NCBI GenBank assembly: GCA_951406725.2
Contig: OX597818.1
Location: 65,162,001 to 65,226,000, forward strand
DNA from: Octopus vulgaris
Taxonomy: Eukaryota
Length of the DNA stretch: 64,000 nt
Reading direction: 5' to 3'
Every line of letters starts with the position of its first letter. Position 1 is the stretch's first letter. The translations under genes and the position numbers were made by a program. Shown piece after piece: positions 6,068 through 64,000 of this stretch. The notes below the pieces were generated by a model. The model had not been told where the DNA came from. It did no database searches and saw nothing but the letters and a program-made list of their open reading frames with translations.

Positions 6068-6475
6068 TATTACATTTTGATAATAAATGATTTAATTTGC
6101 ATTTGTTTCCATTGTATTTAATTTATTTAGTTTGTGTAGTCATTTTGATTTCTCTATCAAGGATTGCATGTATGCCTCTTGTTCCAAATAGAATTTTAGC
6201 ATAAAATATGTGTGGCTTTTAAGAATCTCATTAGCTTGGTGAACGGTTTGGCAGAATTGTCAAAAGTTGATGTTCAGTCACTTTCTCTCGTATGAACTGC
6301 TATACTAACTCAAGCATATAGACATACCAGTTAAATTTTCTGATCATTGTACACACAGACACACATACAAACTGATAAAGTGTGATAAATATGCTACAAT
6401 CACATTGCGACTTAGAAATAATACATTTCTAAATCTCTCAGAGAGATTTATGCAGTAGCATTACGATGAATTGAT

Positions 6476-6850
6476 AGATCCCCGCTACTAGACATATACC
6501 ACTGAGTGGTCAGATAGACGTATGTACAATAAATATGTTTCCAAAATTTTAGGTTTTCCCACTCTACCTATATTCAGTGAATACCACGGATGAAGCAGGG
6601 ATAAGTAAAGAAAATACTTCCATAAAAAAAGTAATACACCAAGATTTAACAAACTTTAACATAATACATACACAAATAATTATTCACTCACAAAATTCAT
6701 TCTGCCACTTATCATGATGAAGCTACACAGTAAACAATTCAGTTTAAATTTCAACCATTGGGCTACATACAAATGAATCCTTTTCACTCTCCCACCAGAC
6801 AGATTAAATTTGGAGCGCCTTGATTATAACTAAACATCTTCACTCAAACG
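6476..6850 (+). mobile_element. Second, shorter copy of the same PLE GIY-YIG C-terminus/3' region
   Basis: Collinear similarity to about 3405-3755 (actagacata..ccactgagtgg..cccactctacctatattcag.gaataccacggatgaagcagggataag..gccacttatcatga.gaagctacacag..gccttgattataa). Confidence 0.85.
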
Positions 6851-7337
6851 TGTCAGCCTTCTTTTTATACGCAAAATATACTGTTAAGTGAGACTAACAC
6901 GCGGACGTAGTACGGTGTTTCCTAGGGCTAAATAAAAGTAGCATTCTTCACTTTCATGGGACTGTCACATGAAGTTGATAACATACTATCACTCATTGCG
7001 ACTTGTCAAAAAAAAAAAAGCTTATCCCGGGCCAATAATTGTGGATTTTACAGAGTAGCACATTCTATGGTTTGGCTATTTGATTTAGAGGCCGAGTAGC
7101 CGTGAGCACTCATAAATATCATTTTGTCTCCTTTACTCTTTAACAAAGAGAGATCAACATTCTGTCTCTATCTTGCCTCAAAATTTGAATTCTTGCCCCA
7201 GCTCTAAGTTTCCCAATGAGTTTAATTTCTCCCACAGTTCACAAGATACGCATTCCACCTTCCCAATACTTATTTCTCCCTTCTCTATCCGCTGACTAAT
7301 TGGATCGCAGAATTTTTTCTACTGTATTACTATGTAC

Positions 7338-7755
7338 TTATTTATTTATTACCCACAAGGGGCTAAACACAGAGAGAACAAACAAGGATAGACAAACGGA
7401 TTAAGTCGATTATATCGACCCCAGTGCGAAACTGGTACTTATTTAATCGACCCCGAAAGGACGAAAGGCAAAGTCGACCTCGGCGGAATTTGAACTCCGA
7501 ACGTAGCGGCAAATGAAATACTTATTTCTTTACTACCGACAAGGGGCTAAATATAGAATGGACAAACAAGGACAGACAAACGGATTAAGTCGATTACATC
7601 GACATCAGTGCGTAACTGGTACTTATTTAATCGACCTCGAAAGGATGAAAGGCAACGTCGACCTCGGCGGAATTTGAACTGAGAACGTAGAGACAAACGA
7701 AATACTGCTAAGCATCTCACCCAGCGTGCTAACGATTCTGCCAGCTCGACACCTT
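7338..7755 (-). mobile_element. tRNA-derived SINE family A, dimeric
   Basis: A-box-like tggcagaatcgttagc and B-box-like gttcaaattcc on the minus strand; two tandem bodies; probable TSD ctgtatt(ac/gt)tatgtac at 7322-7337 and 7756-7771. Confidence 0.9.
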
Positions 7756-8580
7756 CTGTATTGTTATGTACCTTGACGAAACAACTCTATAATGTCTCGC
7801 TTTAAGAATGAAACTAAGGCTTCGCGGCAATTATGCTTGTATTCCATGCTTTATTATTTCTTGCATTGTCATCCATCACAGAACTTTATCAGTTTCCTTA
7901 AATGCTATTGTTTTATTGATGAAAGTAGTTTGTACACGGAATGCAAACGTTCTTTCTAGTGACATTTATACGACAAGTAATCACGACATGACATATGGAT
8001 GTCATAAATAGAAATGCCGATAATTAATTTGAAATTATTTGACAGTAAACAATTTAAATATTATATAAATTTTGATAAATATTTATTTAAAAAAAGAAAA
8101 TTAATTAAAATGACGAAATTGTAACGTATTTTAAAATTCATTACTTAAATCTTTTCATAATAAATCAGTAAAATAAAACAGGCTGTAAAATGTTATGATC
8201 ACAATGTTATTGAATACTGTATGATAGTTACATTGATAAAACTACGTTCAATATTGTTTTTAATTAAAACACTTTGTATAGTCATCATTCAAACTGTTTC
8301 CAAATAAGAAATTAAACTAAATATTATTAAAATTTGTTGATAAATTTGTGCTGGCAAAATCTGTTTGCAAAATGTTGAATGTTGTTTAATTTTTCGAATA
8401 CTGAGATTGATATCGATTTTCTTGTTCGCAGTGTATGTTCAGAGGAAATTATTTGACCTGATCAAACATTTTTTTCTTTCCATTATCACTACAAATAACC
8501 AGTGGGACAATCAAAACGATTGGTGAGTATTCCGTTTATTATAATAACATTAACAAGAGTTAATATTATTTTTCCTTTTA

Positions 8581-9899: not shown

Positions 9900-10475
9900 C
9901 AAATTATTGCCACATATGCAACTTGGGGGGAATGGATTAAGTCGAATACATCAACCCCCGAGCATAACTGGTACTTATTTAATCGACCTAAAAATGATGA
10001 AAGGCAAAGTCGACCTCGGCGTAATTTGAACTCAGAAAGTAACGGCTGACGAAATACCCATTTCTTTATTGCCTACAAGAGGCTAAACAGAGGGGGGACA
10101 AACAAGGACAGACAAACGGATTAAGCCGATTACATCGACCACAGAGCGTAACTAGTACTTAATTCACCGATCCCGAAAAGATTAAAGGCAAAGTCGACCT
10201 CGGCGGAATTTGAACTCAAAACGTAACGGCAGACGAAATACCTATTTCTTTATTACCCACAAGAGGCTAAACATAGAGAGGACAAACAAGGACAGACAAA
10301 CGGATTAAGTCGATTACATCAACCCCAGTGCGTAACTGGTACTTAATTTATCGACCCCGAAAGGACGAAAGGCAAAGTCGACCTCGGCGTAATTTGAACT
10401 CAGAAAGTAACGGCAGACGAAATACCGCTAAGCATTACGCCCGGCGTGCTAACGTTTCTGCCAGCTCGCCGTCTT
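9900..10475 (-). mobile_element. SINE family A, trimeric (184-bp internal period)
   Basis: gtcgacc recurs at 10009, 10193 and 10377; single tRNA-like head at the right end. Confidence 0.9.
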
Positions 10476-57839: not shown

Positions 57840-58328
57840 AATACGAAAGGACGAAAGGCGAAGTCCAACTCGGTGCAATTTGAACTCAGAATGTTAAAAA
57901 AGACGAAATACCTATTTCTTTATTACCCACAAGGGGCTAAACACAAAAGGGACAAACAAGGACAGACAAACGAATTAAGCCGATTATATCGACCCCAGTG
58001 CGGAACTGTTACTTATTTAATCGACCACGAAATGATGAAAGGCAAAGTCGACCTCTGCGGAATTTGAACTCAGAACGTAGCGCCAGACAAAATAACTATT
58101 TCTTTACTACCCACAAGGGGCTAAACACAGAGCGGACAAACACGGACAGACAAAGGGATTAAGTCGATTATATCGACCCCAGTGCGTGACTGGTACTTAT
58201 TTAATCGACCCCGAAAGGCTGAAAGGCAAAGTTGACCTCAGCGGAATTTGAACTCAGAACGTAGCGTCAGACGAAATACGGCTACGCATTTCGCCCGGCG
58301 TGCTAACCATTCTGCCAGTTCGCCGCCT
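57840..58328 (-). mobile_element. SINE family A, about 2.4-mer
   Basis: Three successive aatttgaactcagaa motifs; one head at the right end. Confidence 0.9.
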
Positions 58329-59340: not shown

Positions 59341-59409
59341 TGTATATATATACTTATGTATATATATTATTTAAACATATATATATGTATATATACATAT
59401 ACATGTATA

Positions 59410-59463
<54 letters not shown>

Positions 59464-59582
59464 AATCAAGGAACGGCCATAATAGGCCATTCACCCACTA
59501 GAAATAACAGCCAAAAGCTTTAACCGCAAAATAACGTCAATTCCGTAAACCAGGAGAAAATCAAAAAAACATTTACCCTGTA

Positions 59583-59689
59583 ATTTCTTAGACGATGCAC
59601 CGTTTCATCTACTGTTTAATGGAAAACTAACCTGATTAAATTAAATCAAGCCAATCTACCATAGGCCCTTAGATTCATCAGTAAGAAAT
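59583..59689 (-). ncRNA. Type I hammerhead ribozyme, copy 1
   Basis: Reverse complement of 60996-61102; GUC cleavage C corresponds to position 59591. Confidence 0.85.
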
Positions 59690-60073
59690 AGCCAAGCCGG
59701 AACAGATATTTTTCACGAGGCATTCTCGTTGCTACCTCGTCAATATCTGACCTAAAATTTTCAAATCGTCGCACTCGCGCCAAATTTATCGGCAGCAAAT
59801 AAATATAAGCCGCCGATTCCATTACGGAATTAACCAGAAAATTCATAATTAATCAATATAGGGTGGCAAAAAAAATTTTGTAGAATTCTTTTGCCACCAG
59901 CGGCCTAGTGGGAAAAAATTAAATAGTCATAAACCATTTTTAAGTTCAACATCACAATCAAGGAACGGCCATAATAGGCCATTCACCCACTAGAAATAAC
60001 AGCCAAAAGCTTTAACCGCAAAATAACGTCAATTCCGTAAACCAGGAGAAAATTAAAAAACATTTACCCTGTA

Positions 60074-60180
60074 ATTTCTTAGACGATGCACCGTTTCATC
60101 TACTGTTTAATGGAAAACTAACCTGATTAAATTAAATCAAGCCAATCTACCATAGGCCCTTAGATTCATCAGTAAGAAAT
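60074..60180 (-). ncRNA. Type I hammerhead ribozyme, copy 2
   Basis: Same motif, 491 bp from copy 1. Confidence 0.85.
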
Positions 60181-60564
60181 AGCCAAGCCGGAACAGATAT
60201 TTTTCACGAGGCATTCTCGTTGCTACCTCGTCAATATCTGACCTAAAATTTTCAAATCGTCGCACTCGCGCCAAATTTATCGGCAGCAAATAAATATAAG
60301 CCGCCGATTCCATTACGGAATTAACCAGAAAATTCATAATTAATCCATATAGGGTGGCAAAAAAAATTTTGTAGAATTCTTTTGCCACCAGCGGCCTAGT
60401 GGGAAAAAATTAAATAGTCATAAACCATTTTTAAGTTCAACATCACAATCAAGGAACGGCCATAATAGGCCATTCACCCACTAGAAATAACAGCCAAAAG
60501 CTTTAACCGCAAAATAACGTCAATTCCGTAAACCAGGAGAAAATTAAAAAACATTTACCCTGTA

Positions 60565-60671
60565 ATTTCTTAGACGATGCACCGTTTCATCTACTGTTTA
60601 ATGGAAAACTAACCTGATTAAATTAAATCAAGCCAATCTACCATAGGCCCTTAGATTCATCAGTAAGAAAT
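60565..60671 (-). ncRNA. Type I hammerhead ribozyme, copy 3
   Basis: Same motif, 491 bp from copy 2. Confidence 0.85.
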
Positions 60672-60995
60672 AGCCAAGCCGGAACAGATATTTTTCACGA
60701 GGCATTCTCGTTGCTACCTCGTCAATATCTGACCTAAAATTTTCAAATCGTCGCACTCGCGCCAAATTTATCGGCAGCAAATAAATATAAGCCGCCGATT
60801 CCATTACGGATTTTTTTGCCACCCTATATTGATTAATTATGAATTTTCTGGTTAATTCCGTAATGGAATCAGCGGCTTATATTTATTTGCTGCCGATAAA
60901 TTTGGCGCGAGTGCGACGATTTGAAAATTTTAGGTCAGATATTGACGAGGTAGCAACGAGAATGCCTCGTGAAAAATATCTGTTCCGGCTTGGCT

Positions 60996-61102
60996 ATTTC
61001 TTACTGATGAATCTAAGGGCCTATGGTAGATTGGCTTGATTTAATTTAATCAGGTTAGTTTTCCATTAAACAGTAGATGAAACGGTGCATCGTCTAAGAA
61101 AT
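60996..61102 (+). ncRNA. Type I hammerhead ribozyme, copy 4
   Basis: Stem I ATTTCTTA(60996-61003)/TAAGAAAT(61095-61102); CTGATGA 61004-61010; stem II ATCTA/TAGAT (61011-15/61074-78); GAAA 61079-82; stem III ACGGTGCATCGT; GTC 61092-94. Confidence 0.87.
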
Positions 61103-61323
61103 TACAAGGTAAATGTTTTTTAATTTTCTCCTGGTTTACGGAATTGACGTTATTTTGCGGTTAAAGCTTTTGGCTGTTATTTCTAGTGGGTGAATGGCCT
61201 ATTATGGCCGTTCCTTGATTGTGATGTTGAACTTAAAAATGGTTTATGACTATTTAATTTTTTCCCACTAGGCCGCTGGTGGCAAAAGAATTCTACAAAA
61301 TTTTTTTTGCCACCCTATATTGA

Positions 61324-61354
<31 letters not shown>

Positions 61355-61366
61355 CATACACACATA

Positions 61367-62164: not shown

Positions 62165-62365
62165 AATGAAGGCCATATATAAAATGAACTAGCAGTTCGC
62201 CAACCATTATCGATAAAATGAATTAACGGTTCGCCAAACGTGTTCGATAAAATGACTTTGCGGTTCGCCAAACGATATCGATAAAATGACTTAGCAGTTC
62301 GCCAAACCTGATCGATAAAATAATGTAGCTGTTTGCCAAACGTAATCGATAAAATGACCTAGCGG
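62165..62365 (-). repeat. 34-bp satellite, about 6 copies in reverse orientation
   Basis: Repeated atcgataaaatga...gcggttcgccaa. Confidence 0.9.
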
Positions 62366-62612
62366 TTCCTCAGGATATACGGGATGCTAACATCATTACG
62401 CTTTACAAAAACAAAGGTGACCGTGGTGATTGTAACAATGACCGTGGAATATCTCTTCTAAGCACTGTTGGAAAGGCCTCTGCTCGCGTTATCCTGTCCA
62501 GGCTGCAACTGCTTGCTTCTCGAATTTATCCAGAATCGCAGTGTGGCTTTGAAAGAAGCAGATCAGCTATTGACATGATATTCTCCATACGCCAACTGCA
62601 GGAGAAATCCAG
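62363..62612 (+). pseudogene. RTE-clade LINE reverse transcriptase N-terminal fragment
   Basis: VPQDIRDANIITLYKNKGDRGDCNNDRGISLLSTVGKASARVILSRLQLLASRIYPESQCGF..RSAIDMIFSIRQLQEK. Confidence 0.9.
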
Positions 62613-62812
62613 ATTCTGGATAAATTCTGCGATTCTGGATAAATTCGAGAAGCAAGCAGTTGCAGCCTGGACTGGATAACGCGAGCAGAGGCCTTTCCAA
62701 CAGAGCTTCGAAGAGATATTCCACGGTCATTGTTCCACGGTAATTCAATCACCACAGTCACCTTTGTTTTTGTAAAGCGTAATGATGTTAGCATCCCGTA
62801 TATCCTGAGGGA
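62613..62812 (-). pseudogene. Inverted duplicate of the same RTE RT fragment
   Basis: Reverse complement of about 62366-62540 with small local duplications (ttctggataaattc x2; ttccacggt x2). Confidence 0.9.
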
Positions 62813-64000
62813 CTGCTATGTTATTTTATCGATCACGGTTGGCGAACCGCAAAGTCATTTTATAGATATCGTTTGGCGAACCGTTAATTCATTTTATCGA
62901 ACATGTTTGGCGAAACTTTAATTCATTTTATCGGTAATGGTTGGCGAACTGCTAGTTCATTTTATCGATCATGTTTGGTGAACAGCTAGATCATTTTATA
63001 GATATCGTTTGGCGAACCGCTAATTCATTTTATAGATATCGTTTGGCGAACCTTTAATTCATTTTATCGATAATAGTTGGCGAACCGCTATGTCATTTTA
63101 TCGATCTTGTTTGGCGAACCGCTATTCGTTTTATCGATCACGTTGGGCGAACCGCTAGCTCATGTTATCGATCATATTAGGCGAACTGCTAGGTCATTTA
63201 ATCGAACACGGTTGGCGAACAGCTAGGTCATTTTATCCATCTCGTTTGGCGAACCGCTAATTCATTTTATAGATATCGTTTGGCGAACTGGTAATTCATT
63301 TTATCGATCATGGTTGGCGAACCGCTAGGTCATTTTTATCGATCAGAGTTGGCGAACCGCTAATCATTTTATCGATCACGATTAGCGAACCGCTAATTCA
63401 TTTTATCGATTCCGTGGGCGAATCGTTAAGTCATTTTATCCATCACGGTTGGCGAACCGCTAGTACATTTTATCAATCACGTTTAGCGAACCGCTAATTC
63501 ATTTTATCGATCACGTTTGGCGTACCGATAAATCATTTTATCGATTACTTTTGGCGAACCACCAGGTCATTTTATCGATCACGTTGGGCGAACCACTTAT
63601 GTCATTGTATCGATCAGTCTTGGCGAACCGCTAGGTCATTTTATCCATCACGTTAGGCGAACATCTAAGTCTGACAGCCATCACTAGTCATTTTATCGAT
63701 TATATTTGGCGAACCGCTAGGCATTCTATCGATACGTTTGGCGAACCGCTAAGTTATTTTATCGAACAAGATTCGCGAACCGTTCGGTCATTTTATCGAT
63801 CTCGTTTGGTGAACTGCGAAGTCATTTTATCGATCGCGGTTGGCGAACCGCTAAGTCATTTCCTCGATCATTCTATCGAACGTTTGGCGAACCGCTAAGT
63901 TATTTTATCGATCAAGATTGGCGAACCGTTAGGTCATTTTATCGATCTCGTTTGGTGAACTGCGAAGTCATTTTATCGATCGCGGTTGGCGAACCGCTAG
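62813..64000 (+). repeat. 34-bp tandem satellite (consensus about ttggcgaaccgctaagtcattttatcgatcacgt), roughly 34 copies, running off the window end
   Basis: Direct reading; diverged units with conserved ggcgaac and ttttatcgat blocks. Confidence 0.93.

Follow-up and report, generated by a model that had tools for sequence, protein, structure and literature searches.

A young 491-nt hammerhead retrozyme family with paired insertion ends suggestive of Penelope-like, circle-templated copying

We have analyzed a tandem 491-nt hammerhead repeat found in a 64-kb window of genomic DNA (the whole stretch under study), together with its relatives in the genome G000 (2.8 Gb, 227 contigs). The reading we favour, at a probability of roughly 0.6, is that the repeat is a non-autonomous non-LTR retrozyme and that a Neptune-type Penelope-like element (PLE) mobilises it in trans by way of a monomer circle, in a cycle of five steps. 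The repeat is a young, dispersed and recently spread non-coding family in this genome. As a sequence family it is an ordinary retrozyme; its interest lies in the rule followed by the ends of its insertions and in the pattern of variants among its units, not in the ribozyme or its size, and the mechanistic traces it carries are unusually clear.

The locus in the window consists of two arms of opposite orientation, set in a (TA)n microsatellite. TRF reports a period of 491, with 2.8 copies and 99% matches, over 59459-60810. Mapping to the unit, whose positions are numbered from the predicted hammerhead cleavage site, gives the following layout.

59343..59460, left-hand (TA)n microsatellite of the target site
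59459..60813, minus strand, arm 1 (mapping to the unit and TRF), 1355 bp, 2.76 units, 99.7%; 5' truncation at unit 251; the 3' end is the 'short' one (unit 131) and adjoins (TA)n
59591..60081, minus strand, predicted 491-nt monomer RNA 2, which differs from monomer RNA 1 by one base
60082..60572, minus strand, predicted 491-nt monomer RNA 1
60811..60813, head-to-head (5'-to-5') arm junction, 3-nt overlap of arms 1 and 2
60811..61331, plus strand, arm 2 (mapping to the unit), 521 bp, 1.06 units, 99.2%; 5' truncation at unit 208; the 3' end is the 'long' one (unit 237) and adjoins (TA)n
61226..61331, plus strand, 106-nt 'tail' (unit positions 132-237) that separates the two fixed 3' ends
61329..61358, right-hand (TA)n microsatellite of the target site

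The initial annotation had described a 491-bp unit present about 2.75 times directly and once inverted, and the mapping agrees, with 2.76 units on the minus strand and 1.06 inverted. It had also predicted that a read-through transcript would release two 491-nt monomers; both predicted RNAs have that length and they differ at a single base. The circular fold of monomer RNA 1 is predicted at -146.7 kcal/mol, compared to -111.1 +/- 6.3 for 40 shuffles. The unit is non-coding (longest ORF 66 codons) and has a GC content of 36.7%. A tRNA module search of the unit found none, and the RT or GIY-YIG ORF that would mark an autonomous PLE was looked for in the unit and is absent. LTR-like flanks around a unique interior were not seen among the two-arm loci described below, where non-unit interior sequence never exceeds a few tens of bases. 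The tail contains a strong hairpin at 61278-61314; an Rfam match to mir-5728 (20 bits against a gathering score of 100) is merely this hairpin and was rejected. Elsewhere in the window, a 34-bp minisatellite lies in two opposed blocks around an inverted 111-bp pair (62179-64000), with a short LINE fragment, which we take to be RTE-like, between the blocks near 62400. A 184-bp repeat forms three short tandem arrays of 2.0-2.7 copies (7335-7706, 9934-10426 and 57843-58278).

A descriptor search of both strands of the window returned only four hammerheads, all of them in the 491-nt repeat locus.

59583..59689, minus strand, type I hammerhead, predicted cleavage after 59591
60074..60180, minus strand, type I hammerhead, predicted cleavage after 60082
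60565..60671, minus strand, type I hammerhead, predicted cleavage after 60573
60996..61102, plus strand, type I hammerhead, predicted cleavage after C61094; stem I 60996-61003/61095-61102, CUGAUGA 61004-61010, 68-nt stem II arm 61011-61078, GAA 61079-61081, palindromic stem III 61082-61093

The H17 positions returned by the descriptor (59591, 60082 and 60573 on the minus strand and 61094 on the plus strand) reproduce the cleavage sites first annotated. The motif is made up of an 8-bp stem I, CUGAUGA, a 5-bp stem II base, GAAA, a 12-nt stem III and a GUC site, and it has the invariant type I core (CUGANGA, GAAA, NUH and three stems). None of 3000 shuffles of the unit held such a motif when stems I, II and III were required to be at least 6, 4 and 4 long. 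The earlier description of a complete canonical hammerhead therefore stands for the core, though not for the periphery, where the 68-nt stem II arm encloses a 14-bp hairpin and is closed by A-U. Stem III is a near-perfect palindrome of 12 nt and is weak as a hairpin (-0.2 kcal/mol, against -17.5 as a two-copy duplex). The active monomer fold lies 3.3 kcal/mol above the minimum, and the hairpin form of stem III has a probability of about 0.01. Animal type I hammerheads with a palindromic helix III that are active as dimers have been described (PMC4209133). Rfam models, unlike the descriptor, gave no hammerhead match over the window at the gathering score, nor over 60850-61330 at E<=5, and the 68-nt stem II is a likely reason. 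Li et al. (10.64898/2026.07.22.740005) define a non-LTR retrozyme by at least two consecutive complete units, and the three tandem hammerheads at 491-nt spacing place this element in that class. Judged from its sequence, the element very probably carries a functional ribozyme.

Searching G000 with the unit gave 1009 candidate loci on many contigs. The 40 best full-unit matches were scored, a choice that biases arm lengths upward. A 29-nt core pattern has 700 exact matches in the genome, and the core pattern of a sister subfamily has 832, with no control matches for either. The dispersed tandem copies for which a genome search had been proposed are thus present, at 1009 candidates and 700 exact core matches. 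Substitution from the majority sequence amounts to 0.43% in the 40 best loci, and the subfamily is therefore young. This low divergence, the three tandem hammerheads and the non-coding unit uphold the original view that the family is a young member of the non-LTR retrozymes, with type I hammerheads in tandem. In one locus (L038) unit-specific variants recur every four units, which reflects either a local block duplication or an assembly duplication. The listing for the sister subfamily includes a 10-unit array on one strand. Contigs from four sequencing runs cover the unit; these runs carry no RNA record and are uninformative on strand, ends, level and circularity. A run labelled as another organism holds the unit too, mostly at 90-95%.

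The sister subfamily was compared through a single copy (L199, G000:C2:61763730-61765500), which has a 492-nt unit about 92% identical to the main one, a GUA cleavage site and both 3' ends of the main subfamily; several differences of its type recur in independent sequencing runs. Between this one copy and the main subfamily there are seven changes in the 49 ribozyme positions, and all seven keep core and pairing. They comprise changes at N7 and at H17 (GUC to GUA), the only core positions that differ between the subfamilies, as well as a wobble, the compensatory replacement of an A-U pair of stem II by G-C, and two joint changes in stem III that leave its palindrome intact. Random sets of seven changes were tolerated in 42 of 400,000 trials. 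The initial annotation had named a lack of conservation or covariation among other copies as grounds for abandoning its reading; in this one comparison core and pairing are retained. Within the young subfamily, core mutations show no clear depletion (11 events in 39 positions vs 196 in 452). The genome seems to hold several hammerhead families. Other type I hammerhead elements with a long stem II, unrelated to the unit, occur at L078:100-580, in L109 (minus strand, 6470-7500), in L171/L077/L146 and in L073/L158. The L078 element is head-to-head and about 70% like L109; on its 3' side it ends 40 nt beyond the cleavage site, where TA follows.

The arrangement of arms in the window recurs throughout the scored sample. 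End pairing was counted in the 40 best-match loci and in the one sister-subfamily locus. Two head-to-head arms are present in 31 of the 40 loci and a single arm in the other 9. The 5' ends of the arms vary and the 3' ends are fixed. Among the 31 two-arm loci, 28 have one short (~131) and one long (~237) end, the remaining 3 have one long and one non-canonical end, and none has two alike (P=3.7e-9 if the ends were independent). Almost all canonical ends (67/68) adjoin a TA run, and the arms overlap by 1-8 nt at their junction in 22 of 29 simple two-arm loci. In one single-arm locus (L035) a second arm of just 9 nt is present and is of the complementary type; the other 8 are uninformative. The coordinates in the two exact-core listings for contig C1 place 14/27 and 9/22 loci head-to-head and none tail-to-tail. 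Of the 71 arms, 27 have their 5' end between unit positions 150 and 250, a cluster that coincides with the tail hairpin and may reflect stalling or joining of reverse transcription at this structure.

Described PLE insertions contain partial tandems, an inverted 5'-truncated copy and a 30-40 bp tail on one end, with a bias to microsatellites (10.1101/2021.04.23.441226; PMC3846280). The tail has been traced to two internal sites at which RT starts and corresponds to the sequence lying between them; in vitro, both strands are cut and extended by the enzyme (PMC11167929). These hallmarks are found in the present family as tandem units with an inverted 5'-truncated copy, two fixed 3' ends and a (TA)n target, the last being the target of Neptune and Naiad elements too. 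The inverted copy and the two ends are thus the Penelope tandem/inverted-plus-tail signature and carry the mechanistic information of the locus, a meaning overlooked when the inverted copy was first annotated.

Candidate enzymes are resident in the same genome. A search of the GIY-YIG family and three protein searches of G000 (150 of 6136 GIY-YIG candidates scored) identified at least three young PLE families with an open ORF2 of 775, 781 and 784 aa that encodes RT followed by a C-terminal GIY-YIG domain; older PLE families were also found. The young families have a Cys linker before the nuclease, a feature tied to Neptune and Nematis (10.1101/2021.04.23.441226), and the label Neptune-type as used here is based on this kind of motif and not on a tree. 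In the 775-aa family the rule of one short and one long end holds in 7/7 classified two-arm loci; one insertion (L177/L178) is left unclassified by the end motif, and L170 is single-armed in the stretch fetched. The same rule is seen for the 781-aa family in L106, where the tail measures about 38 nt. Tails of the resident PLEs measure about 27-45 nt, compared to 106 nt in the retrozyme. A comparison of the unit with 129 PLE-derived loci, a partial sample of the PLE families that leaves out that of L071, yielded only one nested 53-nt piece and a chance-level 18-nt match as shared sequence. The 53-nt match, in L072, was rejected as a shared terminus, being carried by 0/29 other copies of that old element. 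This piece (L072:342-397, 53-56 nt, unit positions 76-131, sister type) caps an older-PLE arm inside a TA run, and we read it as a nested mini-insertion. The link to Penelope-like elements suggested in the initial annotation is strengthened by the shared end rule (7/7 in the resident 775-aa PLEs) and by the PLE-type architecture of 31/40 loci, and we consider it highly probable that a PLE mobilises the retrozyme.

Several other features of the resident PLEs were observed. Variant minimal hammerhead-like motifs were seen by eye in autonomous PLEs, at L100:6560-6672, in L181 (minus strand, ~8175-8205) and in L170 (~505-545 after the ORF2 stop, in the pseudo-LTR). They lie 70-140 nt before the short end. 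By eye, the 781- and 784-aa families have a U3-A8 core, a variant described in PMC4209133, with GCA for GAA in the 784-aa family as well, and the 775-aa family has a C4 core. In the young PLEs (L170-L178, L100-L111 and L181-L188) an upstream ORF1 of 450-480 aa overlaps ORF2 where the sequence is rich in T, which hints at a frameshift. In one insertion of the 775-aa family, an arm extends over more than two identical units of 4271 bp.

The form of the RNA template can be approached through the lengths and variants of the arms. Arms run past the cleavage site in 32/33 short-end and 30/35 long-end cases, in a sample biased to long arms, and 20 short-end and 25 long-end arms cross at least two cleavage sites. 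The spacing is exact, with no indels, in 166/166 anchored unit junctions. A cut linear monomer primed at 131 or 237 would give at most 131 or 237 bases, so that longer arms need another template; arms that continue past the cleavage site with exact junctions therefore point to a circle or an uncut concatemer. Between these two, variants are informative. In 6 of 27 two-arm loci, substitutions private to the locus (nine in all) are fixed throughout the units of both arms, and 11 homogeneous haplotypes occur among 26 multi-unit loci. Unit-specific substitutions run at 0.89 per unit in arrays. In-register sharing between arms was seen in 4 of 66 testable non-fixed variants, all of them at one mosaic site in L055. 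The mosaics are L055 at position 39 (7/10 units) and L033 at position 471 (3/11). A concatemer transcribed from an aged array should transmit more unit-specific than fixed private changes, and the variant pattern thus favours a circle. The crossing of cleavage sites without indels and the private variants fixed across both arms favour rolling-circle copying of one monomer. On these sequence patterns a monomer circle is the probable template.

The same PLE machinery and start sites could instead have copied an uncut linear read-through transcript, the source arrays having been homogenised at the DNA level and the ribozyme merely trimming. The four-unit duplication in L038 indicates that source arrays could be homogenised without circles, and the autonomous 775-aa insertion with its repeated 4271-bp units fits a linear transcript as well. 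However, with 0.89 unit-specific changes per unit, inherited variants should not be nearly all fixed, as they are here (9 private fixed vs 1 private mosaic), and for each of the 11 haplotypes seen in the 26 loci a source array homogenised on its own would have to be assumed. We consider this rather unlikely. A cleaved linear monomer could also serve if the reverse transcriptase jumped from its 5' end onto the 3' end of that monomer or of a different one, adding one unit at a time. The kinship of PLE RTs with telomerase RT (PMC4209133) lends this some plausibility, and the mosaic sites of L055 and L033 could record switches between molecules. Yet all 166 junctions are exact, haplotypes are almost never mixed among the units of one insertion, and 5' ends are not enriched at the cleavage site (4/71 within 8 nt vs 2.3 expected, P=0.20), which makes such jumping improbable.

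Explanations that dispense with reverse transcription of the retrozyme fare worse. Birth of satellites from a PLE terminal repeat has been proposed (10.64898/2026.07.22.740005), and the L038 block duplication would suit a DNA-level satellite or orphan pseudo-LTR that grew by unequal crossover or circular DNA and whose ribozyme is vestigial. Such a satellite should not be dispersed on many contigs with variable 5' ends and fixed, paired 3' ends in (TA)n, and the ribozyme changes between the subfamilies preserve structure; the end pattern largely refutes this origin, and we rate it as very improbable. Long-read chimeras can give inverted repeats, and the inverted arrays might on that ground be taken for fold-back or assembly artefacts. 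The arms, however, are unlike in length, end and flank at every locus, the end rule is common to autonomous PLEs, and the long end is likewise joined to a TA run in a contig of an independent sequencing run (X2, loose end at 59845). An artefact therefore has a negligible probability.

In the circle-templated cycle that we prefer, a read-through transcript of an array would be cut by adjacent hammerheads into 491-nt monomers, probably aided by pairing between the palindromic stem III of two copies. The monomers would be ligated into circles, by RtcB in the cases described in the literature. A PLE protein with RT and GIY-YIG domains would then nick both strands of a (TA)n run and prime internally at two fixed sites of the RNA, at 131 from one strand and at 237 from the other; the end pattern is observed, and the enzyme is a candidate. 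Each RT would circle the same RNA for a variable distance, from 41 nt to 5.5 kb (up to 11 units), and the two cDNAs would join 5'-to-5' by short microhomology to give the observed head-to-head insertion with one short and one long end. We put at even odds that double-primed rolling-circle reverse transcription has left its record in these insertions, the array and its inverted arm being born in a single event. Several observations count against the cycle. The 129 PLE-derived loci yielded no autonomous partner that shares sequence with the unit, and the tail has 106 nt, compared to 30-40 bp in described PLEs and ~27-45 in the resident ones. The active monomer fold lies above the minimum, core mutations within the young subfamily show no clear depletion, and the L038 duplication and the L055 and L033 mosaics speak for amplification at the DNA level as well. 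An anole PLE uses unprocessed RNA in vitro and its ribozyme mutants still insert (PMC11167929), and 8/9 Xenopus retrozyme dimers were without cleavage (10.64898/2026.07.22.740005). If this cycle is correct, animal retrozymes would be tied to PLE enzymes by mechanism even without common sequence, and it would explain both the PLE tandem/inverted-plus-tail structure and the rule of one short and one long end in autonomous and non-autonomous elements.

The 491-nt family resembles metazoan non-LTR retrozymes (PMC7229834; 10.64898/2026.07.22.740005) in its non-coding tandem type I hammerhead units, GC below 50%, structured predicted circle, dispersed multi-copy distribution, co-occurrence with PLEs and size within 51-972 bp. 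Its description as relatively large was not sustained, since consensus lengths of non-LTR retrozymes span 51-972 bp and average 650 bp in ray-finned fish (10.64898/2026.07.22.740005); 491 nt does lie above the 150-450 bp range given in PMC7229834. Unlike metazoan retrozymes, the unit has a 68-nt stem II and a 12-nt palindromic stem III. Many Xenopus retrozyme families are homologous to a resident PLE pseudo-LTR, whereas no such homology was found for the 491-nt unit among 129 PLE-derived loci. Head-to-head arms, paired fixed ends and (TA)n targeting, all seen here, are not described in the available portions of PMC7229834 or 10.64898/2026.07.22.740005, and no description of paired ends in a retrozyme was found in the literature covered. 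Nor was a published description of a cephalopod retrozyme or of this family found there; a prior entry in Repbase or Dfam is possible. Circles and cleavage have been shown for retrozymes of coral, mussel and axolotl and are predicted for the 491-nt element. The newt and axolotl satellite and PLE minimal hammerheads (PMC4209133; PMC7229834) share a palindromic helix III for which a second copy is predicted to supply the missing pairs; helix III here can form 4 bp in the monomer and 12 bp in the duplex, compared to 1-2 bp and a palindromic loop in that type, and helix II is much longer. The retrozyme core is the canonical C3-G8, whereas the resident autonomous PLEs, by eye, apparently have variant minimal cores.

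With EN+ Neptune-type PLEs (10.1101/2021.04.23.441226; PMC11167929) the family shares partial tandems, an inverted 5'-truncated copy at the 5' end, a tail on one end, microsatellite targeting, a hammerhead upstream of the end and two internal RT starts. It differs from them in lacking an ORF, in a tail of 106 nt instead of 30-40, and in arms of up to 11 short units. More-than-unit reverse transcription on a circular template is not new here, having been proposed in 2014 (PMC4209133) and 2020 (PMC7229834), and in 2024 internal priming at two sites was demonstrated in vitro (PMC11167929). The movement of animal retrozymes and the origin of PLE tandem and inverted insertions are stated as open questions in these sources (10.64898/2026.07.22.740005; 10.1101/2021.04.23.441226; PMC7229834). 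The present family joins the circle-template hypothesis to two-site priming, with counts. It provides a 491-nt substrate, start sites predicted to the base (131 and 237) and a defined target, and its own genome offers three intact candidate enzymes, which makes circle vs concatemer decidable in one assay. If confirmed, such a system, able to insert a circular RNA as tandem copies into (TA)n, would be of interest for retroelement engineering.
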